Origin: Obrimoposthia wandeli
Lineage: Eukaryota
Length of the DNA stretch: 64,000 nt
Direction: 5' to 3'
Assembly: GCA_977020255.1 (NCBI GenBank)
Contig: CDROCS010000681.1
Coordinates: forward strand, 744,001-808,000
In this document: positions 1,700 through 60,778 of the stretch, piece by piece
Layout: each line of letters begins with the position of its first letter
Numbering within the stretch: position 1 is the first letter of the stretch
Made by a program: the position numbers and the translations under genes
Notes under the pieces: generated by a model
Told to the model about the DNA's origin: nothing
Databases searched by the model: none
Seen by the model: only the letters and a program-made list of their open reading frames with translations

Positions 1700-2095
1700 A
1701 CTTCTATATACTTCTACTTTTCATCATTTTAATATTTTAGATTTAATTTTATCTAAAATGAATGATTATCGAGAAGTATATACAGCACTTTTGCTAATTA
1801 TAATTATTGGTTTACATGTGTAAAATCTATAATATGTAATATGAGTGTCTTGGATACAATTTCAATTGATGGAATAACATTTGAAGCGTTTAAAAAGAAT
1901 TGTAATATAGTTACATTTGTTTTTGCGCCCGAAATTGACACTACTTAAGTACCAAAGAATAGTATATTAAAGCTTAAAATAAAGTTTTCTAAAGTTCTTA
2001 ATAAAGCTACATTTGTATAAGTTTGCGAAGTTTATGATTTTGAAGTACAAATTATAAATTAAAAACAGTGCTTGTTTGAAGTAAGTATTTTAATT
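1700..2095 (+). pseudogene. Polinton major capsid protein C-terminal remnant
   Basis: TFHHFNILDLIL, DYREVYTALL and DGITFEAFKKNCNIVTFVFAPEIDTT*VPKNSILKLKIKFSKVL resemble the C-terminal half of Polinton double-jelly-roll MCPs. Several stops. Confidence 0.5.
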
Positions 2096-2129
2096 AATTT
2101 GTTTTACTAATTAGTACTTAAGAAATTCT

Positions 2130-8070: not shown

Positions 8071-8363
8071 AGTAGTATATAGTGTGGTACTAATTCAAAG
8101 CGACAAAGCTCACCCAGTTTGGGCTCTGCCGTTTAGAATTAGTCCCAACACTATAGTGGCTTAAAAAGTCTGTATATATTCATTTTTAGACAGAATGTCG
8201 TTAAAATGTTTAAAAATTGTTTAAATTGGCTTAAAATGACTTAAAATGACTCAAATTTCTACCTTTTACTGCAAAATCTATTTGAGTTTGTATGTGGGAT
8301 TTCTGATCTTGGCCAAAAAGTCCCGAAATCGAGCATACTAACTCAAGGCAATAGGTACCCCTT
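8071..8363 (+). repeat. Left terminal inverted repeat of the Polinton
   Basis: Aligns with the reverse complement of ~19850-19989 and with 13902-14170. Homology ends where the MCP frame is cut off. Confidence 0.9.
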
Positions 8364-8364
8364 A

Positions 8365-9349
8365 ACCAGTGATTGAATATACACAAACATGTATTCATCT
8401 TTTTCAAAGTTTGTATCGTACGTTTCAACAAAATCAGTGTTTATACTAAGGGAAATTGAACCGACATTACAATGATCAAATTCTGAAGTGTCTGTTTCAC
8501 TAGACCCGTCCATTTTAAGATTATGTTGAAATGTAACCAAACAAATTTAGGTAATTGCTCATCATCAATAATAGGTGATTTATAAAATGTTGTAGAGCCT
8601 TTAGGTAGTGAATAATGTACCACTTTTCCCGTCTATATGGATAAACCGCATTTTGAGTTTCCAAACCAACATTATGAGCCATCAAAACTGATAGTTCAAC
8701 TCGTACACGTCTAACTTTTATTTTAGCATCTAAAAATTTTATTCTACAATGAGTTGTACCTGTTTTTTAGTGACATGTTTGCATTGTAAATAATCAATTT
8801 TATACCGACATTCATATCGGGAAGCAGATATTTGGGTTGTTCAAGAAAATCCGATCGAATTGAACCGCACAACTCAAATTCACTAGATTTTTCAATCCAC
8901 CCTTTTCGTACATTCTCATTACTATCATAACCAATTCCATTTAATGAAACACATTTTGTATCTTTGCTATAATTAAGCATACATTCAATCAAAGCCTTGT
9001 GAGCATAATTACCATTTCCTCCTTCAATACGAGTATTATTCAGGTGAATTTGCACATCTTTAAATAGTGTATGGAAAAAGAAATTTGTTGGTATAAATTT
9101 ATCTGCTTCCACCATATCAATATAACTGTTTTTTCCAATATTTTTTATAACTTTAATTTTCAAATAAAATAGAGAATCATTCAAATCTAAATATTCTGTT
9201 TCACTCAAATAGATATTAAACTCGATTGTATTAATATTACTACCGGTAATATTATTAACCGGGTAAATATTCTCAAAACATCCATTTTCTATAGCAATTT
9301 GAGGTAGTATACGATCAAATAAACACAGTTCAGATTTTGCACATGCCAT
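8365..9349 (-). pseudogene. Polinton major capsid protein, frameshifted and 3'-truncated
   Basis: MACAKSELCLF...IYPV...IEFNI...YLDLNDS is a typical animal Polinton MCP N-terminus. It continues through frameshifts (RIKFLDAKIKVRRVRV...AVYPYRR; LPKGS...QLPKFV; FDHCNVGSISL...YMFVY) and then abuts the left TIR. Confidence 0.88.
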
Positions 9350-9352
9350 TTC

Positions 9353-9736
9353 TTACTCAAATATGGTTCCTATTTTTCTACGTTTGTTTATACTACCTCT
9401 ATCTTTCTGTACTTCTTCTTTCATTTCAACAGGAATTTGTGCTGGTCGTTTTCGACTTTTCTTTATTGCAGTCATTAGTTGAGTAGCAGCTTTTGTTGCT
9501 TCAGGCAATAACCCTGGTACCTCACTAATTGCATTTGATTTTAGTTCACTCAAAATTGGTTTATCGTTCATTACTACATTTGTAAGTGTTTTTGCACCAA
9601 TTCGTCCTAAATGTGATAGTATAGGAAACACAATTCGCCCCAAAACTTTCAACCAACCTGAACCATATTCTTTTCCAACAAAGTAAGGTAGGTTACCACC
9701 CGTTTGGGTTGTACTATACACATAAAATAGATACAT
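9353..9736 (-). CDS. Putative virion core protein
   Basis: Intact 127-aa ORF with QTGG...YGSGWLKVLGRIVFP motif and a basic C-terminus, between the penton and MCP genes. Confidence 0.6.
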   Translation of the reverse strand: MYLFYVYSTTQTGGNLPYFVGKEYGSGWLKVLGRIVFPILSHLGRIGAKTLTNVVMNDKPILSELKSNAISEVPGLLPEATKAATQLMTAIKKSRKRPAQIPVEMKEEVQKDRGSINKRRKIGTIFE

Positions 9737-9779
9737 TATTAACGATTAACATTGTTTAATTTTGTTTATACATAACTTT

Positions 9780-10820
9780 TCAGAAATGTAGTGTTAAACT
9801 AGTTTCTGCGTTATGAGCAACGTTTATCGGTATTCCACTATCATTACGAATATTTATTTCAATATTGGAAATATATGTTGATATTACAGGAAGATACATT
9901 GATCTAATGATTGTAATATTTGCGGTATCACCATAATTTTTGTTTTTATCTATCCAAATTGATTTTAACAATGGTATTTTTACACCATCAATATTTATAG
10001 ACTAAAATGGTATACATGTACATGTGATCAAACTCACATATAAATTGAGGAATACCTTTACCGTCACCTGTAAATTCTGTTTTATTAATACCCAGTACAA
10101 ATGCCATACGAGTATTAAACATTATAATTGAAATATTAGATTTTATATGATTTAATTTAGATATAACGTATTTAACTAATGCATTCAAATCTGTACTATT
10201 GGAATCGTTGTCAAACACGATTTTTGAATTGATATTTTTCTCTCCTAATTGATAATATTCAAATGTTGTTGATACATATTTATGATGTATGGTTTTTTGC
10301 GCAGTTAAAATACCATTATCATCAGATGCTAAGTAATTTTCAGGGTTTAATTGATTATTTAGGAAACCCAATTGATTTTTCGATTATTTCGATAGTTTTA
10401 TATAGAATTTCTGTTTATTTACAGATTTTATAAGAAGTACATTTTCTATTTTTTCTTCACCATATGTATCAAACTCACAATAAAGATTAGCATTGCGTTT
10501 TGATGATTTTATTTCTACTTTTGAAATTTTCTTTATATTAAATTTAACAGGTTTCTGCTTATGAATTTCCTCATCTTTAAATTCAACATTTTATGAGACA
10601 GTATCGGTTTTCTTAACACTAACCGTTTCCTTATAATTTATTTCACCACCCTTGTGTAAAATAACGGGTGTATTACTATAAGTAAATTCTGTCAATGCAA
10701 CTTCCCATTCACTTTGAATTTATATCGGATTTTCCCAATCAACAATAAATTTCGATGCGGTATTATCAGGTTAAGTGTTTGGACAACTATTAGATGGTAA
10801 CACAATATAGAAATCTTTTA
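9780..10820 (-). pseudogene. Polinton minor capsid (penton) protein
   Basis: N-terminus DFYIVLPSNSCPNT*PDNTASKFIVDWENPI*IQSEWEVALTEFTY and C-terminus MYLPV...IEINIRNDSGIPI...LTLHF match penton-type motifs. Multiple stops and frameshifts. Confidence 0.8.
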
Positions 10821-11823
10821 CTCTATCTGGTTCGCTTTTATCCATGTTGGTGTTTTATACCCATGCCACTTTACGTAATATTGTTTATTCTTACCTCGAC
10901 CTTTAGATTTAATGAATTCTTGTATCCTATATACTTTTGGTTTATCAATAACTTGTAATTCTTGCTCATAAAACTTTCCCTCTATCGGACTTTTATCCAC
11001 ATCTATGATGTTATACATTACGGGGTTTGCATGTAAATTGATTTTTGCTATTTCAAATACTTCATCACTCCAATTATTATTTTTAGTAAAAGGTGTTGTA
11101 CTTAGGCGTAATATGCAAACAAAATCTCCAACTTTGTATTTAGGTTTCTTTATTATTGATTTTCTATTACGAGAAAACCAATCATCAGATGAAATATCAA
11201 TATGTTTCTTACCACCTAAACCGCGATGTGGTGAGGGATTATATGAAATTAACAGTTTAGGTAGTACCTTTACCCATTTTTTTGATCCAAATACAACAAA
11301 ATGTTTCTTTAATTTATCTCTTAATGTCCTATTAAATCGTTCAACCAAGGCCGCTTTAAAGTGTGAAAACACAGAGTAATGATTTACTCCTAATTTATCA
11401 AAGGTTGCTTTAACATGTTTGTTATAAAACTCTTTTCCAGCATATGTTTGTACATTATCAGGTACAACATCAATCATATTTTTGATAGCAGCATCTATAT
11501 CTTTACCGAATTTTGATTTTACTGGTTCAGCACGCCCAACTCTGGTAAATACATCAATACATGTTAATATATATTTGTAACCGCTATTTATACGCGCATA
11601 AGGTATTATTTCCATCAAATCCATTTGCCATAAATTATTAGGGCCACTAGTCTTGTACGATCGTGTCGGGAACCTTTTTCGCATCATATTTGTTGAGACT
11701 GTACGACAGTTGATTGCTCAGCCATGCTTGAGTTTTCTTTTGGCTCGACTTGGTATTTGATGATAGAGATCCAACGCCGCTGTATCCAACTGGGTATTTG
11801 GGATCGTACCATATCGTTTCCAT
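10818..11823 (-). pseudogene. RVE-family integrase with C-terminal chromodomain
   Basis: N-terminus METIWYDPKYPVGYSG...AWLSNQLSYSLNK joins by frameshift to ORF 10818-11687 (WQMDL, QTYAGKEF, VERFNRTL; chromodomain YYVKWHGY). The second catalytic Asp position reads Tyr. Confidence 0.92.
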
Positions 11824-11874
11824 TGCAACTATTTATTTTTAAATCAAAATTAGGTAAGTTGTTTCCCATATACT

Positions 11875-12195
11875 TTAGGCAACAGCTCTAGCAAGTAGGG
11901 GACCGATTAAAGTTGCAACTATCGGTAAAAGAGCACCAATAAATCCTCCTTTTTGACGTAATACTATTTTCCTTCGACCAGAACCACTTTTTGTATTAAC
12001 AATATCAAGTAATACTTTCTTGTGTTTTGTAACTTTCAGCTTATGTTTACCGAGATTTATTTTTCCTTTAACTATATTAAACATAATTTTAGCCAATTTA
12101 TCGATAACAAAAGGCTGAAATGAATTGAGAATTCGAGCTCTATGTGAACTAGGTGCCTTTAAAAGCGTTTGAAAGTAAGGTAAAAAGTTTTTCAT
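11875..12195 (-). CDS. Small basic virion protein with C-terminal QKGGFIGALLP amphipathic motif
   Basis: Intact 106-aa ORF. The RRKIVLRQKGGFIGALLPIV motif is typical of small core or membrane-active proteins of animal Polintons. Confidence 0.65.
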   Translation of the reverse strand: MKNFLPYFQTLLKAPSSHRARILNSFQPFVIDKLAKIMFNIVKGKINLGKHKLKVTKHKKVLLDIVNTKSGSGRRKIVLRQKGGFIGALLPIVATLIGPLLARAVA

Positions 12196-12284
12196 TATTA
12201 TTTAAACTGAAAGTACATATATTGTTTATAGTCTTATTGAGAAAATGGATAAAAACCTTCTTTTTTGTTTTCCCTTTTTATCAA

Positions 12285-12515
12285 TTACAATTCAATTCTT
12301 TGTCTTTTTAACACATTTTTAACACACTTCTTCTTCTTTTTCTTTTTAGCACGTTTTTTTGTCGGTTTTGTCTTCTTTTTAAAAATGCGATCAGCATTTT
12401 GCCTTTCTTTCAAAACCGTTTTTATCAATTTCTTTACTCGATTAGCTTTGATATCATCACCAGGTTTCCAATTTGTATCAACATAATTAGGTATTTCTAT
12501 TTTTTCGAAATTCAT
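12285..12515 (-). CDS. Lys/Arg-rich small protein, unknown function
   Basis: 76-aa ORF starting 13 nt after the ATPase stop, co-oriented with the structural genes. Confidence 0.4.
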   Translation of the reverse strand: MNFEKIEIPNYVDTNWKPGDDIKANRVKKLIKTVLKERQNADRIFKKKTKPTKKRAKKKKKKKCVKNVLKRQRIEL

Positions 12516-12527
12516 TTTAAAGGAATA

Positions 12528-13157
12528 TTATCTTTGTTTTTGTTTATACACCATACATTTGTTGAAAATATCGGTTTTTATTCTCAATTCATCAGAACAT
12601 GATTGAGTAAAATTAAGAAACAAGTAACTATGAGGAATTTTAGTTGCATCTTGAAATGAATTTATCAAATATTGCCTGTTATTAGGAAATACTTGACGTG
12701 AAACATAGTCAATAACCGTTTGATCACGAGGATTCTTAAACAAAACCAAGTAATGTACGTTTAAATTACGTGTTCTGTGTTTACCGCCTTTATGAAATAG
12801 GTTTTGAGTAATGAAAATTACGGTAACACAGCTGTGTCCTGCTATTTTAATGAATAAATTATTAAAGTTTGACTCTTTATTTGCTTCATCATACAAGTCA
12901 TCAATGACTATAACATCATCACGTTTTAACTGTTTAAACCAGTTTTGATCAAAACCATTGATAAATTTAATGTTTTTAAGTTTACATAATTCACTTTTAG
13001 TTAACCGGGATTCGCAAACATCACCATAGTGCCAATAAATTTTATAAAATCGATTAATAAACATTTTATTGTTTTGTAATAATTTAGTTACAAAATGTAT
13101 TTTTCCACTACCACTAAGTGCCACTATCTGATATACAGCATTATTTTAAAGTTTCAT
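12528..13157 (-). pseudogene. FtsK/HerA-type DNA packaging ATPase
   Basis: MKL*NNAVYQIVALSGSGKIHF (degenerate Walker A, early stop), VIVIDD (Walker B), IFITQNLF, and RTRNLNVHYLVLFKNPRD. Confidence 0.9.
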
Positions 13158-13204
13158 AATAATAAGAAGAAGAAGAATAAGAATAAGATAAGAATAAGAA
13201 TATT

Positions 13205-13472
13205 GTTTATAGGCATTTTATTAATATATACACCAAAAACGAATTAAAAATTGATACAGAAAAAGTTATATACATCATGTTTGAACGATTAATCTGATAG
13301 AAATTTTCAAAATCCTTTTTCCATTTGAGATCTCTGTAGGCATGTGAGCGAACTATTTCTTTAAGATGATCACGACTATCTTCAATTAAACTTGAAAAGT
13401 ATTGAACACCATTTATTGTTCCTTTATAATTTCATCAACAACATCATCAACTAATTTATCGTTTTTATTCAT
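13205..13472 (-). pseudogene. Small ORF with hydrophobic C-terminus, unknown function
   Basis: MNKNDKLVDDVVDEIIK, then after a frameshift VQYFSSLIEDSRDHLKEIVRSHAY...SIFNSFLVYILIKCL*. Lies between the IAP and ATPase genes. Confidence 0.3.
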
Positions 13473-13901
13473 TCTTATATATAAATCACCAAAATTTCAA
13501 TTGTTTATACCATGAAATTTTACATTTCTTACTCTCCTTTCAATTATTTGTCGACATACTGGACATGAATGTAACCTTATGGAACATGAAATACATGTTT
13601 TTACATGTCTGCATGGTAGAAATACTACTTCAATATGATTATTCAAACATACTACACATTCAGGTTCTTTTAACATGTATGAAAGTATATCTATGGATTG
13701 TTTTACAGGGTTTATTTCTAAATTAGATAAATCACAAATCATTTCAAATAGTGAATTGTATTCTCCATATTGCATCATTTTATATTTTTAAACAGATTTT
13801 ATTCTATCTTTCGTGAAAAAGCTTTTGAAGTATCTGATGTTGTTGGTATCCATCAACATGTCAAATTTTTCAGTAGTTAAAGGATATTCAATTATACATT
13901 C

Positions 13902-16900
13902 AGTAGTATATAGTGTCGGTACTAAACCAGTTTGTTCCTTTGGTTTAGTACCAACACTATAGTGGTCTAAAAATTCTGTATACTGTCATTTTTTAAACAG
14001 AGTGTCGTTAAAATGTCTAAAATTTGTTTAAATTGGCTTAAAATGACTCAATATGACTCAAATTTTTACCTTTTTACTACAAAATATATTTGAGTTCGTA
14101 TGTGTAATTTCCAGACTTGGCCAAAAAGTCTCGAAATCACACATACTAAACCAATGGTAATAGCCTCCCCTGGGCAGGTACCTTTTACTGCAAAACCATT
14201 TTTGGCGTTGTATGCATGATTTCAAGACCTTTTTTCAAATATGGTGCTAAATATCTCGCCGTTTAAAACAAAATATGATTTCAAAACCATTTTCAAATAT
14301 GGCTCTAAATATCTTGCCGTTTAAAACAAAAGTAGATTTTGAGTAGATTTTAAGAAGATTTTAAGTAGATTTTAAATGGCCAAAGTCTCCCTTACGGAGC
14401 CTCCTAAGAGGGAAGCCATTCATCCGAAGACGAGCAGCACCTTTGAAAAAGATTATATTTATATTACTTTTGTTTATAGTTAAAGAATAATAAATCAATT
14501 AATTATTTATTCATATGATAAATAACATTTAAATCAATAAATCAATAATTCATGTGATACTTTGATGTTAATGATATTGATATTCTTTAGGGTTAGTGCG
14601 AAGAGCACATAACATATCCAAAGTACCTAGAGTCATAATGATGAAATGATTTTAAAACTAAAGTGTTTCGATTATATAAAAACCTAACTTCAATATAATT
14701 AGTCAACTAATCAAAATAATCCTATATAATAAATAATTTGATTAAACACAAAAGTTGTATTAATATATACAAGTGAGTGTGTGTATGTGTGTGAATGAGT
14801 GTGTACAAATGATTATGATATTAAATAGTCACAACAACAATAACAAAACTATATATATTATTTAAAATTATTAAGTTAAATTAAAATGACCGTAAGCAAG
14901 GCTTTTATTCTTACTAATTCTTTCATGTCTTTGGAAATAATAAATGTATTTGCAAATGTAAATTTTTTTTGTTGTTTGGTTTATCGATTTGACGTAATTT
15001 AGTATGATCAAACAGTATTTTTAGAATTTTTTCAATTTTTCAAATTATATTCTTTAAAAAGATTTATTATGTATTCATAAAAATAATTTGCAAACGAATG
15101 TGAAACATCTAATTTATAAATGTATTTAAAATTTTTTTTATTGAAATTAATATTTCTAATCTATATAAATCTAACTTTTATAAAATATAATGTAAAAACT
15201 ATGATGTTAAATACTTTTAATAAATTTAAAAATTTATGATGTTAAATACTTTTTACAAGTAATGTTTTAATTTTGAAATAATTTTTATATTTATTTGTAA
15301 GTGTAAAAGTTTTTTAAATTTATTTAGAAATGTTTTGTAAAATTCTAACGAATCTAAATTATGGAATATTGAAAATTAATTTGCAAACACATGTTATTCA
15401 AAGTTACTGAAAGTTTTGTTTAGAAATTAGAATACCAAATCTTTAATTATATTGTTTTATATGTAAATAAATCAAATAGTGTACATATTCGATTATCAAC
15501 TTAGTATTTCTATTTATTATTCAACTTTATAAAATATTAAAAATCTCTTCTGACAACAAATAAAATAAAGTATTGATCGTATGAATTAATACAAGTGTAA
15601 ATGTAAATAAAAGAAAGTAAAATTAACAATAAAGTACAAGTATTAATGAATCCAGCTACAAGTAAGAAATAATACGATTGCAAGTACAAATGTCAAGTAC
15701 AGGTATGAATGAAAATTAGTAAAAATATTAATGAATTTGAATGATAGTTTGAATAATGAGAGTTAATAGAGTTGAATAGTAAGAGTCTTAAACTGCAAGT
15801 GTGAAATTTTAATTGAGTAATTGAGAGGGGAAAAAATAATAAGAGTGTTGAGAGTATGATTGAATGTGAGTGTAATTTAAACTATAAGTAAATTAAAATA
15901 GAGTTTTCGTATTTATATGAGATTACTAGGAAACAACACTATGTTTGATGGCATGAATGAAAATAATTCTAAATGTGAGTAAAACTATAGACAAGTTAGT
16001 CATTAGAAATGTATGATTGAATGTAAATGTAAATCATAATGTAAATAAATTAGTTAGAGATTATGGTTAAAAAATAAAAATATCGGGAAATATTGTGGGT
16101 TAAGAAGAGAAGTATAGAGTTGGGCTTAAAGTAGAGAGACTTTTCGACGTGGTTAAGATGTTTAAGAAAAGAAAAATAGAAAGATTAATGATATTTTCAG
16201 GAAATTACGATATTCAAGTGGATAGTGCATAAATTCGTGAGATAAAACATCAATATCTATTAATAATTTCTATAACATTATACATCCTTCGGTAATCTTC
16301 CATATGTGTTTTAAACTTCCATCATATTTGATCATAAATCCTTGAATCATAATGAATAGGGGTCCATTTTTCATATCCTTTTCAACATTCCAATAATCTG
16401 CAAAAATACGTTCATCAGCTCTCACCAATATAGAATTTCTATGAATTTTATATCCAATATCTATTTAATTTTGTTTATTGGCATTCAAAAATTACTTTTA
16501 AACATAATATATTTTGTATATATTTAGTTTAATATGTTGTAAGTTATTACTGTAATAGTTCATTACATGAAAAGTAATTGATAGTTTACTATCGTTTACA
16601 ATAAATTGAAAATTTATACATTAGTTGTAAACAAATCAGTACTAATTGATTTAAACTAGATTAACTTTGTTTAATCTCGAGTATATTATATTCTTTGATT
16701 TCAATTAATGTACATTTTAAATATTATTTTGTATTAATGAATTGTAAATTTGTTTTCTCAATTAAAAGTTGAATGCTTTATCTTGTTAACAATGATAACA
16801 CAATATATATATAGAGAGAAAACGCAAACATTTCATTATACATAATTTGGAAGTTATTATTAAACAAAGTTAATCTTGTTTAAATCAATTATTAAAATTA

Positions 16901-17891
16901 AAACTAAAATTATTTAACATCATAGTTTTAAAATATATTTTATAAAAGTTAGATTTATATAGATTATAAATATTAATTTCAATAAAATTTCTAAAAATAC
17001 ATTTATAAATTAGATCTTTCACAATCGTTTGCAAATTATTTTTATGAAACATAATAAATCTTTTTAAAGAATATAATTTGAAAAATTGAAAAAATTCTAA
17101 AAATACTGTTTGATCATACTAAATTACATTAAATCGATAAACTAAAAAAAAAAAATTACACTTGCAAATACATTTATTATTTCCAAAGACATGAAAGAAT
17201 TAGTAAGAATAAAAGCCTTGCTTACGGTCATTTTAATTTAACTTAATAATTTTAAATAATATATATATAGTTTTGTTATTGTTGTTGTGACTATTTAATA
17301 TCATAATCATTTGTACACACTCATTCACACACATACACACACTCACTTGTATATATTAATACAACTTTTGTGTTTAATCAATTTATTTATTATATAGGAT
17401 TATTTTGATTAGTTGACTAATTATATTGAAGTTAGGTTTTTATATAATCGAAACACTTTAGTTTTAAAATCATTTCATCATTATGACTCTAGGTACTTTG
17501 GATATGTTATGTGCTCTTCGCACTAACCCTAAAGAATATCAATATCATTAACATCAAAGTATCACATGAATTATTGGTTTATTGATTTAAATGTTATTTA
17601 TCATATGAATAAATAATTAATTGATTTATTATTCTTTAACTATAAACAAAAGTAATATAAATATAATCTTTTTCAAAGGTGCTGCTCGTCTTCGGATGAA
17701 TGGCTTCCCTCTTAGGAGGCTCCGTAAGGGAGACTTTGGCCATTTAAAATCTACTCAAAATCTACTTTTGTTTTAAACGGCAAGATATTTAGAGCCATAT
17801 TGGAAAATGGTTTTGAAATCATAAAAAAGGGGTACCTTTTACTTCAAAACCATTTTGTTCCTTTGAGTTAGTACCGACACTATATACTACT
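13902..17891. mobile_element. Non-autonomous Polinton derivative nested in the IAP gene
   Basis: AGTAGTATATAGTGTCGGTACTAA termini at both ends. TSD ACATTC (13896-13901) versus ACAATC (17892-17897), one mismatch. Inverted arms ~13902-15215 and ~16910-17891. Confidence 0.92.
16270..16490 (-). pseudogene. 5'-truncated copy of the unknown Polinton accessory gene
   Basis: LVRADERIF...PLFIMIQGFMIKYDGSLKHIWKITEG aligns with FIKADEHLF...ILFIQIQGFKVDRLGRQKPIWRITEG of ORF 19196-19519. Confidence 0.75.
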
Positions 17892-18420
17892 ACAATCTGT
17901 TTCGATTTTCTCAATAACATTAACATCATTATATTGTCCTAAACATTTTGAATAATATATATCAGGTAATTTTACAACAACATCTGATACATATACTTTT
18001 CCAATCAATGGTGATGTATAAAAATCGATTTTCTTGACCATAGTTTCAATTATTGGTACATTTGAAACATTTAACATTAAAAGAAATGGACATGAAGGAA
18101 AAAACTTAATATGTTGCTTCATTGGTTTAAGATACCATTCCCAATCGAATATTGCACCTTGACAGTATATACATTTTACTTTATCAGTTGAATCATCATC
18201 ATGTTTATAAAATCCAGCTTTAGCTAAATTATATACAGATTGTTTCCCTTTAAAATTTATAATTAACGATCTTAATCTTTCACTTCCACGTCTATATTTC
18301 TAGTGTAAAACTTTCATTCTAGAATAATCTACTTTTTGTCTAACTAAAACATAATCAACAGTTTTATAATGAAGTATATAATCAACAAGCATTTTAAAAA
18401 ATTCAAAAACATATATTTGT

Positions 18421-18892
18421 TCATAAGAAACTTTCAAGAAAAAATACAATAGACTCGACTTGACAATGATAATCAAAATATTTAATACCATGAATAATCC
18501 CTTTTCCACTAGCAAACACATTAACACATAAAGGATTATACTTTAAAATTCTGAGTGCTAGAAACAATTCTGGTTCAAACATACAATTTCTTCCCATTTT
18601 CATAGATATCTTATACAAATTAACCTTCTTGTTGATATTCACTAGGATACTTAGAGATTGAATACGTTCAATTTCTATATTTATGAGCATGTTTGATTGG
18701 TTGTTTGCAAGTTATAATTCTGCATGAGCCTAAATAGTAGTAGTAATAATAATAATAATACCTGTTGGAAATATAACTATAGTATAATCCTTTAACTTTT
18801 CAAAATATTGTATAGGTTTTTTTGATCGAAAAGGTAAGTGACTAACACTTCCCTTAAATTTTACCTTTATAATTTATATTGATTATTTTCAT
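18421..18892 (-). pseudogene. TATA-binding-protein-like gene with a 32-nt intron
   Basis: Repeat 1: MKIININYKG...HLPF...IVIFPTG|SCRIITC after splicing GT...AG at 18761-18730. Repeat 2: IQSLSILVNI...MFEPELFLAL...VNVFASGKGIIHGIK, which resembles TBP YEPELFPGL...IFVSGKVVLTGAK. Stops and frameshifts present. Confidence 0.75.
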
Positions 18893-18941
18893 TATGTTAT
18901 AATAATTGATGATGTCACAAACATATATAGTTTCATATTAT

Positions 18942-18961
18942 CCAATGAGAATCAACCAATT
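18942..18961 (+). promoter_or_regulatory. CCAAT motifs in the spacer between the divergent TBP-like and unknown genes
   Basis: CCAATGAGAATC..CCAAT about 64 nt upstream of ATG 19017. The related CCAATGAGATTC lies about 60 nt upstream of the homologous gene in the 60 kb relic. Confidence 0.4.
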
Positions 18962-19016
18962 AGATTCAAGTAGTTAACTATAACTACCGAAACATTTCAG
19001 TTTACTCTCATTCATC

Positions 19017-19519
19017 ATGTTCAATTTTCAAAAAAGAAGAGCACAAAGAAGAGGAATAATGATATTTTAAATACAAGCAAAGTTGTACAGATAGATTCTG
19101 ATGATACAGAATTAGAGGATATTTTTAATGCAGAAACATAAGACCTATTCAAAGAATCTGTACCTTATTTCATTTATACAATAAATTTTCTAAAGATGCC
19201 TGTTACCTTTGGATTAAAATACCCTGTTATGCTAACAAAGTCCAAGTTTGACTATGTCATCTCAAGGATCCATCAAAATGATATTAATGATATCAATTCT
19301 ATTTTCAGAAGAATGATATTAGATATCAAAATTGAAAACTTTAGTGCTTTTATTAAAGCTGATGAACATCTGTTTAAAGGAATATATACTTACTCTGAAG
19401 AAGAATTTCCCAAAAGCAAATATTGGATTTTATTTATTCAAATTCAAGGATTCAAAGTCGATAGACTCGGGAGACAAAAGCCTATTTGGAGAATTACTGA
19501 AGGACATAATAAAGTTTAA
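19017..19519 (+). pseudogene. Unknown Polinton accessory protein (~165 aa)
   Basis: ORF 19196-19519 extends upstream through one stop (19139-19141) and a probable frameshift in an A-run to ATG 19017. Homologues at 16270-16490 and 59700-60179. Confidence 0.65.
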
Positions 19520-19539
19520 TAATATTTATCATATGAATA

Positions 19540-19989
19540 AATGATTTATTGATTTTATTTTAATGTTATTTATCTTATGAATAAATGATTTATTGATTTT
19601 ATTTTAATGTTATTTATCATATGAATAAATAATTAATTGATTATATTATTCTTTAAATGTTAACTATAAACAAAAGTAATATAAATATAATCTTTGCCAA
19701 AGGTGCTGCCCGGTCTTGCAGAGCTCGCCTCTTAGGAGGCTCCGCAAGGGAGACTTTGGCCACTTAAAATCTACTTAAAATCTACTTTTGTTTTAAACGG
19801 TAAGATATATAGCGCCATATTTGAAAATGGTCCGGAAATCACACATACGAACTCAAATAGATTTTGCAGTAAAAGGTAGAAATTTGAGTAATTTTGAGTA
19901 ATTTTAAGCCAATTTAAACAATTTTTAGACATTTTAACGACATTCTGGGGCTTTGTCGATTTGAGTTAGTACCGACACTATATACTACT
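19540..19989 (-). repeat. Right terminal inverted repeat of the Polinton
   Basis: Reverse complement aligns with 8071-8300 and with the nested element's arm (GGCCAAAGTCTCCCTT.CGGAGCCTCCTAAGAGG block). Confidence 0.9.
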
Positions 19990-20757
19990 CTTAGCTTGTC
20001 CAGAGATAATGTAATTTGCAACATATTTTTCATTGGTGTATTCATTATCCTTACTATCATCATTTTCAGACTTTTTAATGAATGACCACGAACTCATCAA
20101 TAGAAAATGGCTCTCCTATTTTCACAAAATATTAAGTGATTCTACAAACTGATGCTTATTTCTCTAATGTACGTGTCATCTAATTCATGTCATTAAAACT
20201 TTTATACTAAATTAAAGATAATTTATTTAGTGTTGACGATATGTTATAAATCATATTAGATACTTTAAATAATAGTGAAGCAAGCTTTTCATGATTAAAT
20301 TAATTATGATCCTGAACAAATAATAAACAAAGGTTTAATTGATGTTTATGGAAAATTTGTAATTTAAGTAAATTGTTTGAAAAGTTTGTGAAGAGAGAAG
20401 GAATTAAATTATGGTTATTTATACCAAAGTTTATGGATGAAATTGTCTGAGAATTTAGTTTTAACATATTCAAAGAAGAAAATATCAGACAGGAAAGATA
20501 AAAGTACATAAGTAATAAATGAATGGGTACAGAGAAGCTAAAATGAGAAAGAGAATTTATGATATTTTGATAGGATTTGATGAAATTATATATAGTTTTT
20601 TGTTGATTAATAATCTTAATAAAAAAGTAACATATTCTTTTTTAATGATAGGCAGCACAAATCAAAGTCATGTTTGAAATGCAAAGTATCCCACGAACTT
20701 GACAATTATCGAATATTTAAAATATTAAATGTTAACCAAAATATGGAAGTTAGTAAA

Positions 20758-30600: not shown

Positions 30601-31379
30601 TCAGTTTTGTGAGTCGATGTAGGTGCAGCAAGGCTGCTGGCTATGGTAGTCGATGGTTGTGGCTGTGTTGGAGATCTGAATGAGGCTGCTGTCGCCGTTG
30701 CTGTTGTGAATATTGAGTTCCGGCTGTGTGTTTTGAATGGAGCATTCTCCCACCGTGTGGTGGTGGATCGTGCCGCGGTTTCTCGCCAGATTCAATCGCA
30801 CCGCACCAGTCGCAAGATGAGAACGAGATGTGCGATATTTATCGTCGTTGACGGTGTCAGTTTCAGAGCAGTCGAACAATTTCATGAAGTCCTTGCGAAA
30901 TTTGCGGCCAGCGATGCAATATATGAAGAAGTTTATCGAGTGATTTGTGTTCATGAGCAATTCCACAATGGAGTTCACGAGATGCAGCTTGGAATTGAAG
31001 CCGGGATCGACTAAGATTGTAGGAGTTTGTTTCTTGATAATGGTTAGCACGATTTTGAAGATGACAACGGGAATGATAGTGAGCATGAACACCCACGAGA
31101 CGAGGATGAGCATGACGAGCTGCTGAACTGATTGTGAGTTGGCTGGAGAGTACCGATGCTCCGAGGTCACAGTTTTGGAGTTGCTGGTTGATTGACTTGG
31201 CACGTGACAAAGCTGCATGAGTTGGCGTTGCTGGCGGGCTTTCTTCAGGTAGTGGATGATCTTCATGTTGGCCACGTATATGATCAGACACGGTATGTAG
31301 CAGTAGATGGCAGCATCGAACCAGGACCACACAAGTCCAAATACTTCTCGTTTGAAGTCACACAATGGGGCTTGAACTG
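30601..31379 (-). CDS. Rhodopsin-family peptide-receptor-like GPCR, 3' coding exon (ECL2, TM5-TM7, tail)
   Basis: TM5 WSWFDAAIYCYIP, TM6 LILVSWVFMLTIIP, TM7 NTNHSINFFIYCIAGRKFRKDF. GC-rich against the flanks. Phase-1 acceptor AG before 31379 or 31376. Confidence 0.9.
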
Positions 31380-33699
31380 CTCAATTTGAAGGATAAGTTT
31401 CAAATATTTGAATATTGTTGACAATATAAATATCATTAAAACATAAAAATGATCTAATTGGTTAAATTGTTTTTTTTTTTTATTATTAAAAACATTTTTA
31501 TGTAATTTGCTACTTAATGTTTTTCGGAGTAAATATGGGGTTAAATTTTTTTAAACAAAACATACCATTTTTTTTCTTTTTACGATGTTTATAGGAAATA
31601 ATGTAGTCCGATTGAAAAGTTTAAGACAACAGGTTTCATATAAATCTAATTTTATTTATTTATTTAATTAACAATGATAAATATTCTTTAGTTTTTATTT
31701 ATTTGCATGATATCCATGCATATTACATTAAATATAATTTTAAAGCATAATTATAGTTTTTTGTAAATACAATCTGACATTAAACTAAAAAAACTCAAAT
31801 TGACTCATGGACTTTTAGACATATGCTTCATTGGCACAGTGCCACCGAATTGTCACTTTTTTACGGGTATTCTCTTTGTTTTTGACATTTTGGTAATATT
31901 TCATAAACATTTTTAACTCAAATTTTAAAACTTAATTCAAGTATAAAATATATATTTCGCTTTATTAAAACAAATTGGAATAAAATATTTCATTTTAACC
32001 TTATATTTTGCAGTTACTTCAAACAATTTAATCAAATTTCGATTTGAGTTCATCAACGCAAATTAAATACCTTCCATTCATCAAACCAATTAATACAGTT
32101 GGAATTTGCAGAATAAAAATAACTGAACCATTTTAATAAATATTAATTTTTTTCTTTCTTATTTTTATTTTGATATAAACAAAATAAGTATGAAAACAAA
32201 GATAGAGATTGTAACCCAATAATGTAGGAGGGACATTTCTGCGAAAGGTTTCCTATGACTTAAAGAATATTTAAATATATTAAAATTAATTGATTGTTCT
32301 AAACTTAAATAGATTGAAATTAATTAATGGCTTTTTGATTTTCAAATAGAAATCAGAACAAAATTTCGATTAAGAAAGTTCTAACCACTTTAATAAATCA
32401 TGTGAAAATATATTTGATTAATGGAATTGAAATTAATTTAAATAAATTGAATGGGAATTAATTGTTTTAATTGTATTAACAAATTTATTGAAATTGAATT
32501 AATTGTTTTGATGAATTGGAAGTATTTAAATAGTTTTAATGAACTCAAATTGAAATGTAAGATTCTTGGTAAAACATGTTCGAAATCTTTATTTTGATTT
32601 AATTTCATTGGTTATGGAATAAACTCTGCGAGTTCTTTTATGGTCAACCTTCTTGGTTCATCATGTCAAAAGATTGATTTTTAGAAAATCCACATTTTTC
32701 AGCTGTGTGACCCTTTTGTCCATTGCGCATGCTGCCGTGAAATGCCGATAATTGTGTAATAAAAGAGACTAATACTTATGCAATCATACATTCATAGTTT
32801 AAATATCTATTTGGGTACATATATTTGTCTAACAACATTTTGACTTTAAATGGGTATTTTATTAAAGAGATTATTTAGGAAATAAAGTGTTCGAAACTGA
32901 ACAAAATGCAACAAATGGGATTTCGAGAATAAGGTAAATTTAAAATTTAATGTATATGGAAAGTAACAGAAAATTACCAAACGTCACTGACAAGTTGAAA
33001 TAAACATATAAATAGACATAAGTAGCATAATTAACAAAAATATTATGTCATTGATCAAAATTAATTTCAAAAGGGGAAAATTGGAATATATATCGAAAAT
33101 CGTATTTTAAATGTTTAAAAAATCAATATTTTGCATTTGAAAGTGATACAATTATTTTTCTCTATTTCTTTACTCGAGAAAGATCTTAGAATTTCTGAAA
33201 ATAATTTCCATGCGTTCCAGATCAATAACAATCTGACTAAATATTACGTTTTTGACTAATTTTTGTGTTTGTGGCATATTGTGTGTTAAATTGTCATAAT
33301 AAACTTTATGGTGAAAGTAAATTACATCAAAAATTCTTTTAAAAGTGACAATACAATCTGTTTTAACTATGCTTCTTTTTCTCTGCTATTTTCTAAAGTC
33401 AAATGAAAAATAACAGTTTTCAGTGGATTTCAAATATAGTAAATTTGAATAAAACTATTTTTAGTTATATGAAAGTAATTCAAATGATAAATTCAAAAAT
33501 TTTTCTTTGAAATTTCGATTAAAACGAATTTTGGTAACATCAAACTTTTGTTGTCCATATATATATTTGCCGTAGCTTGATAAATTGTAGATTGTGGTGC
33601 ACACATATTATACGTTTGTTGTCCAACATAACTGATTGGGTAAGCTAGTATTCATGTTTAAATGCATCGTATTTTCTTTATAAGAGTATAATATAATAA

Positions 33700-36600
33700 T
33701 AAGATAAGATAAAAAAACTATATATTCATAGTAAACACATGCAGGGAATTAAATTCCCTATAGTAAGGTGTCTTCTACTTCATGTAAGACCGATGAATCT
33801 CCAGGGAGATTGTTTGTGCGACACTGCTTGGTGGTTTCCCAGGTTGTGACTGCATTTTCTAATTATTTCCAGACCATTGGAAAAATAAATATTATATGTT
33901 CTGGTATTTCAATTGCTTTCAAAAAGAATTGGTCAGAAATTTCAAATGGGTAATTTATTTCATAATACAAACATCCACTTTTCAATCCACTCCAATTTGT
34001 TTGCAGTCATAGCATCTACTCTATCAGGTATTGTATCCACAGTTTCTGAAACTCCACGTAGTCTAAAGCAATTCTACTGGGCACAGGTATGTTCTATGAC
34101 CTTACTTGAGATTCGTATTTTAATCTTCTTTCTTTCTGCAGCTGAATATTTGTAAGCCTGGAAAAGTTGGTTGTTGTCAACATTCCAGAACCCGAGGGTC
34201 CCTACTCTAATGACATAGATTTCTACCATTTTGTCACTATTATTTTTCCGCGTAGTCTCGACTAGATTCTGATATTTTTTCATTGCTTTGCTGCAACTAT
34301 TATTTTGACTCATATTACTGTCAAAGATAACTTTAATTTCCACATAGTGGATGTAGGTTCTACCTTTTTACAGTAATATCTGGTCTAGCTCGCTGAATAT
34401 TGTCACTGTCATTCATTACCGCAGTAGTTTCCTCCATGGCAATAGTATCTCCGTTTTTTAGGGCAACTTTAAGTAAGGCATATACTTCTCGAACTACCAT
34501 ATCGTGCCTCTGTACTTTCCAGTGATGCATTTTATAGCATCCTACTATAGCATGGGATACAGTCTCGGATGATGGTTTGTTTTATATTTTACACCCATAT
34601 CGGCAACAGTTAACTTCACGCTTACTATATAGTGCTTTAAAATCCAGGCGTCCTATTCGGGCTTTGTGTATAAAGTACCATGCTTTATGAGCGAGTTTAT
34701 CCTTTAGGATAAACCTGTTAATGTCCGTATCAGATCTAGCATTTTCATAAATCACCGATGCTGGTTTATCATTAATTCTTACATGCTCAGTCCTAGCAAT
34801 TGCGATCTGGTTGTGGAGATTGGCACTGACTTCTTTGTTATCTTTGCTTGTGAGTACGGTATTAAGATTATCCTTCTTAATGTAAATTATTACTTCATCA
34901 TTTTCACCATCTGTATCTCCTCTAGAGATTATAATTTCGAGATTCAATTCCTTCTTGATTTTCTTGTGAGCCTCAGTATACCTTGCCCACTCATTTCTGT
35001 CCGTTGTTTGAATGACTTTTTCATTTACGGCTTGGGTCAGACAATTCCAAACGTATCTGCATTCCAGGAATAGTTTACTTACTAAGGAGATTAGTTCAAG
35101 TCTAAAGGCTTGTTGTAATCCTCCACGGTCTGCATTCGCTATTTTGAAAACCTGGTTTATGGCTTGTATATTATACTCATCCATGATAGTTGGTATATCG
35201 AATCCTCCATGATCTTTATGACCATGGACAGTTCCAAAAGGGGTATGTTTAGGCAGTCCTGCAATTCTTTGAAGTTGTTTCCTCACTTGCCGGTCATAAG
35301 CTTATTTTGTTACTCCTTTAGTACATCTATCGTTGGCGAATCTGTCGTAGGATATATTGTTTTGCCTGAAACTGAATACAAACTTGGAATGTACAAAGCT
35401 TTTGTACGCCGAGATTTTCTGATGAGGATACAGTCTACTGTTCATGATCTTCATAGTCATTTCAAGATTCTCCTCAAATATATCCTCGTATTTGTGTTTT
35501 GTATCTGCATTCCTGTTCATACCTAGGTATCTGTAGGGACTATCTGTAGTTACTGCATTTATAGGGTCTCCATCGAGTAAGATCTCCTTGATTCTTTCTT
35601 TACATCTCTATTATTTCTACCTCTGAAGGGAATTCTGAGTATTCCACATTTCCTAGGTCTGAATCTCAATTGATACTGGCTGCAGTATCTGTTGCAGTAT
35701 CCACCACGGTCTTCAGTACAGATTTGTCCTCAGCGAGTAGGCAAGATCATCTGCATATGCTAGGATATCAAAATGTGTAGAGCCAAGTTTGAATCCAGCG
35801 TTGGGTACTTTGTTTACTGCCTCAAGACGGGCTTAATATAGAGATGAAATATAATAATGGACAATGGACAATTTTGGCGTACACCTTTTTTAATGGGTAT
35901 ATCTGTAATATTAGTTTCTCCACGTTGTATGTCGATTTTGTTCTCTTCGTAGATACTGTATACAAGTTTACATATCTTCTCAGAAATGTAAACTTTCAAC
36001 ATCATTCCAACGATGAAGTCTACGGGCACTGACTCAAAGGCATCAGCGATATCCAGGAATGCAACATGGCAGGATCTTTTGTTTCTGTGACACTCATTGA
36101 TGACGAGATTGAGTACTGTATTGTGCTCAAAACAGCCCTCAAATCTGCCAATGCTCTTTTTCTTTTCATGCCCAGTTTCGTAGATCAGAAGCAATAACAC
36201 TTGCCAGTACTTTATAAAGGCAACTCATAACTATCCAGGATCGTGTTAAACAAGGACGTTATCTCATTGCAATTCGGGTCTTGTTTCCTGATGTTGGAGT
36301 AAATTATCCCACCAGGCCCTGGGACACTAGCAGGAGCTTTCCTGGGAGAGAAACTTACCATCTTGGCAGTAACAAAATAGCATTTAAAGGTGCTTTCTCC
36401 TCTCTGAAAAAGGTCGTTGGGTAATGTACTCCAGTCCGTTGGTATAGATTCTGGCATCTTAGTCTCAAAGAAACCAAGTATGTTTCTTCCGTCTGGCGTA
36501 CTATGAATATCAATGTTGTCGATCATAATCTGATTGATTGTTTCTTTGGGATTTACTCGATACAATTTGGCAAGATCGTGGTCCTTGACTGCGCTTGTCT

Positions 36601-36780
36601 TTCGGGGTTTGTAATGTTTGTCTTTAGCATTCTCATGCTTTAATGCAAACTGTTTCTCCACAAATCTACGTTCGATGCAGTTGATCTCAATCATGATCGA
36701 GGGTTCCACGGTCCTCTCACTAGGGGAGAGGGTACTACTCAGCACATTGGGGATGTCAACAACGAAACTCAATAAGCCAG
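33700..36780 (-). mobile_element. R2/NeSL-type non-LTR retrotransposon (RT + CCHC + REL endonuclease), decayed, in the GPCR intron
   Basis: RT motifs GCFEHN, AFLDIADAFESVP, GVRQNCPLS, AYADDL, YRYLG, HGGFDIP. CCHC CRYGC...SHAIVGC...QRHD. RPDI...EIKV, KKYQNL and GTLGFW. 3' hairpin AGGGAATTTAATTCCCT followed by a simple-sequence tail. Confidence 0.9.
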
Positions 36781-39513
36781 TAAGTGTACATTGTACATGT
36801 TGTATAAAAGGAAGACATAAATGTTTCTTAGGCTTAATTGTTAATTGATTAAAATAAGAAATACTATTTTTATTTTCATTTATTTATGCTAAAAAATTAA
36901 AATATTTAAATGAGCTTTGTAATGAAATTGATCTCGAATAATATTTTAATCAAGATAATGAGAACGAACAAAGTATATTTATTATATCCACAATTCATAA
37001 GAACTTATTAATATTTATCAAATAATTAGTATACATATCGTAAATAAAACTAGTTTGTATTGATATATTCGACAGATATTTCTATTCTTTCCACAATAAA
37101 CAGAGAGAATCCAAATATGTTCTACCATAAATTAAAGATTTCAATTATTTTAAATATTTTAAATAATGGAACATTCAGGTCATGGTTTGGCAATTATAAT
37201 AGAATTAAATTTTCGGTTTCCATTTACAGTTTTACAGTTTTTGCTGGGCCTGGAGTGCTGTTAAATGAAATTAAAGCCATATTTTTCTTGATTGCTAAAA
37301 TATATCCTTTCTGTCGAGTACAATAAACTGTTGAGTACAGATATAAAATAACCATCCGATTTTACAAAACCATAAACCATGATACCACTATCTTGAATTG
37401 GTTCTTTTTACGGTTGATAATATCTTCATAAGATACCTAAATTAAAAATATTATGTGTCATATTAACACCAAATATATACTATTTATTTATCTAATATAT
37501 ATATATATTTAATTGTAAATATACTAAATAACAAAAAATTGAAGTAAATATCTTAAAATTCTTGTTATTTTTTCTCGACTACTTATAATAATATGTTATG
37601 AGTAACGCATTTTTTAAACCTAAAATAGAAATTTTGAATATTTCTTAAAATTAAATTATACGATGTATTATATTATAATTTATCTCTAAGATCTTTAGCA
37701 AAACCATCAGATTTTACGGCTTCCAAACACATCTTTACTAGAAAACAATTTACTGAAAATTAATGCTGCCCTATTTCATTAAAATACTGCTTCTCATAGA
37801 ATTTTTACTTGTGACTGCTTTATAGAAAACCTTAATAACGTCTGGCTGGATAATATCTTCTACTAAAATGTTCAAATAGTGGTTTTCTTTGATAGTAGGT
37901 TTAGATATATGGGATAAATATTGACGAGAATTTAATTCAAAATGACACTTCTTATCTATTGATGAGAATAATGTTCGAATGGATTCGTGATTTAAGTTAT
38001 AGAAAGGAATGTCAGATTTAAAAAGGCTTTATTTACTTCTTCAGTATACTTTGACGAAACTTTAAAAGGTTGAGTGGATTATTTTGTTGGAATCCAAACA
38101 TTTTAAATGATTTTCTCCTATTAAATTATTAGTAATTAAAATTATTAATAAAAATTAATTTACCACTTCTGTTACTTTGAACAAAGAATCATTTTCAATT
38201 GAGTTTTAATAATTCGCTATAAATTTCCATTTAGATTTCGATCTGAAAAATATCTTGGGAAACTAATAAATTTAATCTTTTTTCAGAAACATATTCAAAG
38301 TGCTTTATGACGTTGTGCCATATCATGTTGAAAAATACATTTGCAGTTTGGAAAAACTAAACACTTACCAATCGTTTCAAAATTTTCTAATATTGCTTTG
38401 TATTTTACAAATTTTTTGGTTTCTTTAATAAATTTTAAAATTCATATTCCATTAAAATTTGTATATCTCAACACAGGATTATGAGGTTTCTAAACCCATT
38501 GTTCACCCGGCCTTTTATCACCGAGGCTTGATATCACCTATGTATATTGCCACCTAAACTTTTGTCTTCAAAAATTTTAAATAAAAACTTTAAAACCGCA
38601 TTATTAAATTTGAATATTTTTTTAAAAAAAATGTATCTTACAATTAAAAATAAATTAATTTGAATAGTTATTTATTCGTCTTAAATTCAATACAATTAGA
38701 TATATACTTATAAATACATGCTTAATAAAATAAATATTATAGAAATCACAATATCCTTACAGTCCATACATTTTTTATTTTTAACAACTTAAATATAAAA
38801 CTATAAATAATAAGTCTTTAGTTGAAAAAGAGCGGACGGCAAATAACCGGTTACACTGAGCCGAATGGCAATAGGCATATTCCAAAATATGATATGTATG
38901 TTTCATTTGCAGGTTGAAGGGCAAGTTTCCAACAACAAAAAAATACCTGTGAATTACAAGTTTTCTGAATGTCTTGAAGTATTGAAAAATACATTAATCA
39001 CTAAATACAATCAAATAGCAAAATTGAATGTTTATTTTTGTAGAAAAATATGCTTTTTAATAGTTTTATAACATATAAAAAAATATTTTATCAAAATTAT
39101 CTGAACACTTCTGGTTGATAAAGTTATTTTAGCATATTTATTGTAAATACTACAATTTTTTGCAAGAATCAATCTGTCTTTTAAAGAACATCTTACAATA
39201 CTTTTGTTCATATTCGATACTTGCTGTACTTGGCCTACCACTTTGAGATTTAGCATTAATAATAATATTTTTATGATGCTTTTTACAATTTTCACTTATT
39301 AATCATTGATTTGATTCCAAGGGAGACCATGATTTTTAAAATCCTAAAATAACGAGAAAACAAACCAATTAAAGGAATTGGTATTTCATGATCAGTCTTT
39401 AATATGTTTAAAATATAAAAATACACTATAATTAAGGGTTACAAGGGTTTCGTCACATTCTGTAAATCGAAGACAATTCAAAGTTACCTCCTAACCTTAA
39501 CAGTTCAACGAAC

Positions 39514-40051: not shown

Positions 40052-40163
40052 CGAGAGTCTGCACTTCTGCTCTGTTTCTTTTCCCCCTGGAATGTCACAT
40101 TAAATCCGCTATAGTTTCAGGAATTAATTAATTTGGTTATTAATTCTAAAATTGTGTTGAAGT

Positions 40164-58844: not shown

Positions 58845-59699
58845 AATATGTTTCCCCTGCAACTTCTATTTCCTTTGTGACTTATAACAATAATGTTTGT
58901 GTTCTTGATAATGGTTATTATGTTTATGGATTTCTATTGATAGCGACGGTTGAATAAAGTAATTAGTAGCCTCGCTACAAAAATTTAAAAAGGTTAATTT
59001 AATTAAAAATTAAATGTTTGAAATAAATCAATAAAAATTGACTTAGACCTTTCTAACGCTCGTTGAAACTCCCAAACCAACAAACCACAACACCTAACAA
59101 TATAGATATATATATATAGGAAAAAAACAAGACAAAAACATTCATTTCAATAAATTTATTTTAAAAATCAAATTTAAAACACCATATAAGCTTCACTCCA
59201 AGTCCAAATAGGCTGCATATTCCTATCATCAGCATAATAACCATCGAGTCGTATTGAAATATTCCATAGTTTTTCATGAAAATCGGAGCAATCAAATAAC
59301 CTAGGTCATCTTTAAAAGCCAGACTGATATCAGTTTCAAGCTTGTCATATATATAAAATTCCAGAATATTTTTCAATTAATCAATATCAGAGGTTGATAA
59401 AAATTCAATTAGATAATTATTTTCCTCTTTTGATATTTTCACTGGATTCATAATACGTATAATTTGATGCCTATTTAATATATTACACGGTTTCCTTTTT
59501 TAAATTCTTTCCGGATAATAAAAATGTCCTACATATATCAGAAGAGTATTCATTCTGAAATAAAGAAACTGATTAAAAACCAATGTTTATAAAAATTTCT
59601 ATATTTAAATAAGATACAAATTTTATGAAAAACAAATAAAACTGATTACAATTTATGACATAGAAAATTTTAAAAAAATGGTATAAAACAAAATAAAGA

Positions 59700-60179
59700 A
59701 ATAGTTAAAACATAGGAATATGAACACGTTCAATTTTCCACATATGTAGCTTTGCTCCAATTTCATCCTTCTTGTAACGCTAAAGCCGAATTCCATTGCA
59801 TTATTTTTAGAAACGCAACAACATTTATTTCTCTTCCACATTCATCTAAAAATGCTGCATCAGCTCCTCGGATATAAAATTCGTTCTTATTGAATGTAAA
59901 ACTTGGAACTGCATTTTTAACTTTCTGTTTAAGATATTGAAAATCTGTTTTTTGAATATTTGATAGATAATAGTTAAACTTTCTTTTTTCAATTGTCACA
60001 GGATTTACTCAAGCAAGCAGTTGAACCTTCTTTTAGAATCTGACTTTGTATTTGAAATATTGATTCACTTCTTCATACATATTCCTATCCAAATCATCAA
60101 ACATTTTTAGATCTTCATATTCGCTTAATACCTGTTGGCTATCTTCAATCACTGATAATTGTCTGTGATATGAATACAT
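59700..60179 (-). pseudogene. Diverged copy of the unknown Polinton accessory gene
   Basis: YFKYKVRF...PVTIEKRKFNYYLSNIQKTD aligns with YFIYTINF...PVMLTKSKFDYVISRIHQND at 19160-19285. Frameshifted C-terminal FGFSVTR and GAKLHMWKIE correspond to IQGFKVDR and GRQKPIWRITE. Confidence 0.65.
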
Positions 60180-60439
60180 TTATTATGATTTGTTCTCCAA
60201 AGGCGCATTCTTTTATACTAATTTGTAACAAAGACACGAATCTCATTGGTTAATATAACTAAACCATTGAATTGAATTTGACTAAATCCATATTTAAAAT
60301 TGAAATTTATTGAAAGAAATATATTTGATTTTAATCATTTAATTATAATAGGTTTGCAATATATTTACAAGAAATGTGCAATAAGATGCCAAGCTCAGAC
60401 ATATATAAAGAAGAATTTACAGAAAACAATTTTAGTCTA

Positions 60440-60778
60440 AAGAAACTCATAAATATAAATTATAAAGGAAAAACTGAAGATGATATTTCGCACTTACCAT
60501 TCAATGTTTGGAAGCCGAGACCAAATGTGAAAAAGTTTGATGATTTCATAGTTGTTATTTTTCTTTCGGATGAGTTTTATTTTTTTTTATAATGAATTCT
60601 TTTAGGAAGTTGTCGTATTATGGGATGCAAAACACCATTGAATAAGTTCAATTTAGCAGTTGGAATTTATATCAGCGCCATACAATCAATCACAATTATT
60701 GCTAATCTCGGGAAAGTAATATTTTTTTATAAAATTGCAGAGAAAATGAAAGAAGAATCCATATTTAAGCCGGAACTC
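60440..60778 (+). pseudogene. Second TBP-like gene, 3'-truncated, with a 36-nt intron
   Basis: KLININYKGKTEDDISHLPF...FIVVIFLSG|SCRIMGCKTPL...IQSITIIANLGK...YKIAEKM...IFKPEL. Intron 60570-60605 (ATGAGT...TTTTAG, donor G>A) lies at the same codon as in the 18.7 kb copy. Confidence 0.8.

Follow-up and report, generated by a model that had tools for sequence, protein, structure and literature searches.

Introns are in general not rare in nuclear DNA viruses and DNA transposons, so their presence in one more such element is a surprise of limited size. Among the closest described systems, vertebrate Polintons (Mavericks) encode a protein-primed PolB, an rve integrase, an A32-type ATPase, an adenain-like protease and both capsid proteins, and most of their copies are decayed; the available part of the report on them (Barreat and Katzourakis 2021, PMC8097293) describes no introns for any intact element's genes and cites Kapitonov and Jurka 2006 in agreement. 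Caenorhabditis Mavericks, according to the accessible portion of Widen et al. (10.1101/2022.07.12.499685), contain host-derived cargo genes with introns and core genes that are called intronless. Eupolintoviral elements of dinoflagellates bear introners, that is, young, repeated intron-generating transposons (PMC12166617, in part), and the genome of the flatworm Opisthorchis felineus has a class of short introns peaking near 37 bp (PMC6530080, in part). A TBP-like ORF is marked on the genome map of an adinto-like virus (Starrett et al. 2021, PMC8502044, figure legend); in the available text of that paper the string "intron" occurs once, on another subject, and "splic" is absent. Among the papers listed by literature search, none describes animal Polintons whose core genes contain spliceosomal introns, and on this point the available portions of five further sources (PMC10748475, PMC12220804, 10.64898/2026.07.28.741278, PMC6431247 and PMC5718144) offer only group I introns, in protist PLVs.

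The window analyzed here is a stretch of 64,000 nucleotides from Obrimoposthia wandeli (contig CDROCS010000681.1, positions 744,001 to 808,000), in which two TBP-like genes of Polintons are each interrupted by a short segment. The elements of this host resemble the vertebrate Polintons of PMC8097293, as far as the available text goes, in their gene set and in the decay of most copies, but differ in having short GT-AG segments in the protease and TBP-like genes. They share with Caenorhabditis Mavericks the occurrence of intron-bearing genes within an animal Maverick; however, going by the accessible portion of that report, the interrupted genes here are of another kind, namely a core gene (the protease) and an element-borne gene family. 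Spliceosomal-type introns within Polinton-like elements are also known from the dinoflagellates, but in contrast to the young, repeated introners described in the available part of PMC12166617, the putative introns here are old, conserved in position, divergent in sequence and located in an animal. Introners would show near-identical sequences at many unrelated sites; among the families and genes compared here, the putative introns differ. Microintrons like those of flatworms are described for host genes in the accessible part of PMC6530080, whereas here they lie in a Polinton; flatworm TBPs are also the longest-coverage matches of the host TBP. The adinto-like viruses likewise have a TBP-like ORF in a Polinton-type genome, and the available text mentions no intron for it. 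The segments are very probably decayed copies of one short GT-AG spliceosomal intron at a fixed Gly codon, removed by the host, because homologues with an empty site exist, position and ends are conserved, the interior is divergent, the exons are under selection and host introns of 35-47 nt are predicted.

Polintons of the window and the host genome

A decayed family-A Polinton on the minus strand (about 8352..19993) retains part of a major capsid gene, a small core gene and genes for a minor capsid protein, an integrase, a PX-like protein and an A32-type ATPase, together with a BIR-RING gene split in two (13500-13961 and 17892-18392), the first TBP-like gene and a divergent ORF (19040-19508). 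A family-B remnant (59104..60778) comprises a divergent ORF and the second TBP-like gene, and a third, decayed remnant contains capsid (1710-2079) and protease (to about 2439) sequences. Elsewhere in the window, a host gene for a 7TM receptor is represented by two exons recognized with Pfam (39497-40099 and 30601-31380, minus strand), and apparent non-LTR retroelement fragments were identified by eye (34074-36883, minus strand; 51189-51935, plus strand), in an intron of the 7TM gene and beyond.

The host genome (1.35 Gb) carries a very high Polinton load, with at least nine families, of which A and B are very abundant. The TBP-like gene is very abundant in it: TBP-like queries gave 27,590 and 42,220 first-look candidates, which are not copy numbers, and the best 150 of the 27,590 were scored. 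Twenty 10-kb stretches around copies from seven families contain genes for A32-type ATPase, rve integrase and PolB as well as capsid-sized ORFs. Fetched copies match the Pfam families PolB, rve and Pox_A32, with weak matches to the protease (PF00770) and capsid (PF16903) families; the gene set of Polintons/Mavericks (PolB, rve integrase, A32-type ATPase, protease and capsid) is thus found together. Accessory genes in or beside the elements (L195:2-4000, L202:1756-2607, L204:1447-2094, L198:1417-2319 and L254:222-722) include dual-specificity phosphatases (in families D and E; also an ORF of 1333 aa close to a copy of family B) and BIR-RING IAP-like genes, and L254 has a look-alike of a ubiquitin-conjugating enzyme, recognized by eye. 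Some copies (L204) contain two capsid-like and two protease genes.

The model of an uninterrupted homologue of the TBP-like protein (P0001; pLDDT 95.4) forms a shortened TBP saddle with the two-repeat fold, the first repeat being the shortened one. Its top 44 PDB matches are all TBP chains (TM 0.65-0.81; E about 1e-10), and the Gly at the junction occupies a tight turn between two strands. The predicted, likely role of the protein would be to bind promoter DNA for the element's own transcription.

The segment at the glycine codon

At site 1, a 32-nt segment with GT..AG ends and a TAT/TAC repeat inside (18730..18761, minus strand, read from 18761 to 18730) is predicted to be an intron that splits the Gly codon of the family-A gene in phase 1. 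It separates a decayed exon 1 (18762..18892, minus strand), with a frameshift near 18855, from exon 2 (18421..18729, minus strand), which has a further frameshift near 18690 and matches the Pfam TBP family above cut-off (PF00352, E 4.6e-07). At site 2, a 36-nt segment with AT..AG ends (60570-60605, plus strand) lies between exon 1 (60440..60569) and exon 2 (60606..60778) of the family-B gene, whose 3' end is cut off after 60778. Both segments are inserted after the first G of the Gly codon, and retention would break the protein, through a frameshift at site 1 and an in-frame TAA TGA at site 2. The preliminary description of the window had given this position, phase and effect, all of which are confirmed. 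It had also called the segments unrelated, which is roughly true, although the similarity between A and B somewhat exceeds that of base-shuffled controls (z 3.3). As for the GT...AG ends, site 1 has both, whereas site 2 lacks the GT donor found in most of family B. Twenty of 26 family-B copies have GT..AG and three, including site 2, have AT..AG; site 2 is therefore, judged by its relatives, a decayed donor rather than a special intron class. A non-canonical AT-AG or U12 intron was ruled out, as 21 of the 26 copies begin with G. Among the read joints listed for four runs of unstated kind from one sample, which cover contigs only and in which reads break at the site 1 repeat, none matches either segment, a result that speaks neither for nor against splicing.

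Both anchors are present in 27 of 30 family-A loci, all of which have a segment (GT..AG in 22 of 27), and in 26 of 30 family-B loci, all with a segment of 30-40 nt (GT..AG in 20 of 26); no anchored locus of the two families lacks it (0 of 53). Different segments occur at the same base in three further families. Given the base composition of the window, GT..AG at fixed ends has a chance probability of about 0.002 per family, and since a common origin of the families is probable, these values do not count as independent trials. In family A the segment is a repeat that slips in length, from 26 to 236 nt; its length is always 2 mod 3 because its inside is a trinucleotide repeat, and the 32 nt at site 1 therefore need not equal the length in an active element. 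The inner sequences differ between families, with a similarity somewhat above that of base-shuffled controls (z 0.6-7.1).

A protein search identified 37 homologues from outside, of which 31 (140-165 aa) are continuous through the motif, with no insert. A profile made from these 31 proteins only was given to a spliced aligner free to place introns in 132 loci. Clustering by exon 2 assigned 131 of the loci to families, with 49-75% exon-2 identity between intron-bearing families; the site 2 locus (L031) stayed outside because its gene copy is cut off. A GT-AG intron was called at column 43, in phase 1, in 24 of 30 copies of family A, 28 of 40 of B, 33 of 34 of C, 5 of 9 of D and 4 of 5 of E, and not in the single copy of F (0 of 1). 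The GT donor and AG acceptor of a U2-type intron were thus recovered in 94 of the 119 spanning copies of families A-F. Four copies scored as having no intron (L061, L062 and L074 of family D, and L068, the sole F copy) carry partial deletions of the segment and no precise loss. In families G, H and I, the gene is continuous and the column-43 intron is absent from all copies (0 of 9). The 36 spanning TBP-like genes on metagenome contigs (37 loci) have no intron call either, in a sampling where the outside protein set and one of two metagenome seed patterns favor intron-free genes. IMG/VR scans with the protease and TBP-like alignment found no relatives. The segment is a precise interruption of a conserved frame for which empty-site homologues exist. 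The preliminary description took intact paralogues without the segment to be evidence against an intron; in families G, H and I it is indeed cleanly absent, yet they represent the empty site that defines an intron, and the objection therefore fails.

Retention would shift the frame or add a stop in 91 of the 94 called introns, the in-frame segments without a stop amounting to 2 of 5 in family D and 1 of 33 in family C. Between families A-E, pS is 0.64-0.97 (saturated) and pN 0.11-0.36 for both exons. For the sister families D and E, both intron-bearing, pS is 0.71/0.64 versus a pN of 0.11/0.15 (for the two exons; uncorrected). Because both exons are constrained between these two families, a two-exon product was maintained in the presence of the segment, for which an explanation other than splicing is hard to find. 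The same constraint bears on the idea of a dead accessory gene that hitchhiked on the amplification of the families, with the segments as inactivating insertions (microsatellite or AT-rich filler). Such an origin would suit the variable-length simple repeat of family A, the decay of the majority of copies and a within-family pN/pS that in places approaches neutrality (0.96 for exon 1 of family A). It is nevertheless very unlikely: the segments of five families with 49-75% exon-2 identity differ from one another but share the insertion base and the GT..AG ends, both exons are selected between D and E, and the same pattern is found in the protease, a core gene.

It is also highly improbable that the segment stays in the mRNA and that the product starts from a Met just inside exon 2 or arises by read-through or frameshifting. 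A conserved Met does lie four codons into exon 2, where the proteins P0017, P0035 and P0037 begin, and in a few copies of D and C the frame continues across the segment. However, exon 1 is constrained as much as exon 2, the model places the site in a tight turn from one strand to another, and segment lengths in families B and C span all three frames, so that no single recoding rule fits.

The probable protease intron and candidates in other genes

Families C, D, E, G and H have a short GT-AG segment at codon 2 of the protease gene, directly after the capsid stop, and it is present even where the TBP-like gene is continuous (families G and H). Among 30 family-G protease loci, 25 have GT..AG, two have a changed end, two lack a start codon and one has no anchor. 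The third remnant in the window carries a predicted intron at this same site, a 34-nt GT..AG segment directly behind the capsid-gene stop (2081..2114, plus strand). In uninterrupted outside proteases, the first whole codon past the acceptor aligns to residue 3. The same protease segment occurs on the metagenome contig L254, which has long open frames, and is absent from six other metagenome contigs with a complete protease start. Protease segments were located at L198 near 7850, L201:3304 (minus strand), L202:7934, L204:7026 and 8520, L206:6785, L210:6452, L212:6427 and L254:9199; the capsid stop and protease start overlap in several families. The interrupted protease departs from the intronless core genes described in the available part of PMC8097293, which are a reported trait of Polintons and not part of their definition. 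The putative protease intron is older-looking than that of the TBP-like gene, in the same lineage. It may be common and mis-annotated in databases, since the proteases nearest this clade (P0169, P0171, P0172 and P0174) have N-termini that resemble translated intron tails, and others (P0167, P0168, P0175 and P0176) begin at an internal Met.

No intron was called in integrase or ATPase (13 regions each), and one doubtful call was obtained in 24 capsid regions. Calls in the minor capsid, PolB, PX and small core genes were set aside, being mostly in-frame within open frames or based on a poor profile. Candidate short introns were seen in the 5' leader of PolB or among its first codons, just behind TATA-like boxes (L198:8649 and 8793, plus strand; L199:2213 and 2060, minus strand; L202 near 8985; L203:5650; L194:8708; L196:6656, minus strand; L210 near 600, minus strand). 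The metagenome contigs L243-L252 and L271 have an intron-free TBP-like gene, yet contain several GT-AG segments of 41-47 nt, one of which lies at the same phase-0 site of a neighboring gene in six contigs.

Because short intron-ended inserts sit at fixed places in both the TBP-like and the protease genes, these Polintons likely depend on the splicing machinery of the host. In the nucleus, RNA polymerase II of the host would transcribe active elements, the host spliceosome would excise the intron along with host introns of the 35-47 nt class, and the spliced product would be a protein of about 150 aa.

Host introns, origin and implications

Host intron sizes were obtained by spliced alignment of 50 kinesin stretches and are homology predictions, not annotations. 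They comprise 97 distinct calls with good flanks, the longest of 3.6 kb; the calls of 21 and 27 nt included among them are doubtful, and the shortest trusted call is 35 nt. A short class of 35-47 nt exists (20 of the 97 calls), and introns of 47 nt in the host TBP gene, at another position, and of 43 nt in a TRF gene were read by eye. Of 69 distinct Polinton intron sequences, 54 fall at 35-47 nt (median 38 nt). Their lengths lie within the host range except in some family-A copies, 8 of 24 calls measuring 26-32 nt, under the shortest trusted host call. Since their sizes match the host short-intron class, and a peak of about 37 bp is reported for a flatworm, the Polinton introns are by these predictions ordinary-sized for the host. 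The processing by the host spliceosome and the host tolerance of very short introns suggested in the preliminary description are thus supported, splicing being deduced by comparison.

The host possesses a head-to-head pair of TBP genes as well as several TRF-like genes, two of which have no core introns (L091, L092 (G000:C238), L094, L095 and L093/L096). Matches of the host TBP are spiralian, and those covering the whole query are mostly from flatworms; by these matches the host is a spiralian and probably a flatworm. Because host TBP is continuous at the equivalent Gly, the intron of the TBP-like gene is, on this comparison, not inherited from it. That the intron is real but came in with a captured cargo gene, a TBP or TRF gene of the host, can be practically dismissed: the available part of 10.1101/2022.07.12.499685 does describe intron-bearing cargo genes in nematode Mavericks, but the host TBP/TRF genes inspected here (L091-L095) have no interruption at that Gly, identity between the Polinton protein and animal TBP is only about 31%, the gene is a member of a broad, element-borne family most of which is intron-free, and the tree shows in part the nesting of intron-bearing among intron-free Polinton genes that, with strong support, would speak against capture.

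Masking of the junction columns leaves the TBP-like genes that bear the intron on one branch, supported at 81/81 in the tree with metagenome relatives and at 17/0 in that with proteins from databases; a quick tree placed one long outside protein row within the intron-bearing group. The core-gene tree, which is unrooted, sets G and H apart from A-E (99/97), and a tree of ATPase, integrase and capsid with outside contigs added rejects a single clade for A-E (p-AU 0.014). The spliceosomal intron was probably gained once in a Polinton gene, at a CAG|G-type site, the alternatives being repeated gain or an old gain with losses; after a single gain its inner sequence would have drifted freely. The best fit is a single gain with later gene exchange between elements, with losses or parallel gains as possible substitutes. 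An origin by tandem duplication predicts that a Lys is kept after the Gly, where the intron-bearing families have Ser, Ala or Thr; it is not settled by this residue, because the same residues occur without an intron as well (L247, P0007 and P0022).

It is conceivable, though rather doubtful, that an entire clade within the animal Polintons is splicing-dependent, with introns cut to the 35-47 nt class of the host and the protease intron, placed immediately after the overlap of capsid stop and protease start, serving as a splicing gate on virion maturation. If so, the clade would be confined to hosts able to remove introns of less than 50 nt, and this would have escaped annotation that is blind to introns. 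Annotation by ORFs alone cuts short the proteases and TBP-like genes of Polintons, and functional elements may be taken for broken ones. The copies, which number in the thousands over many families, with or without the intron, offer a natural series for the study of intron gain, loss and size limits. The old, position-conserved introns argue for long-term transcription and processing of these elements in the host nucleus.
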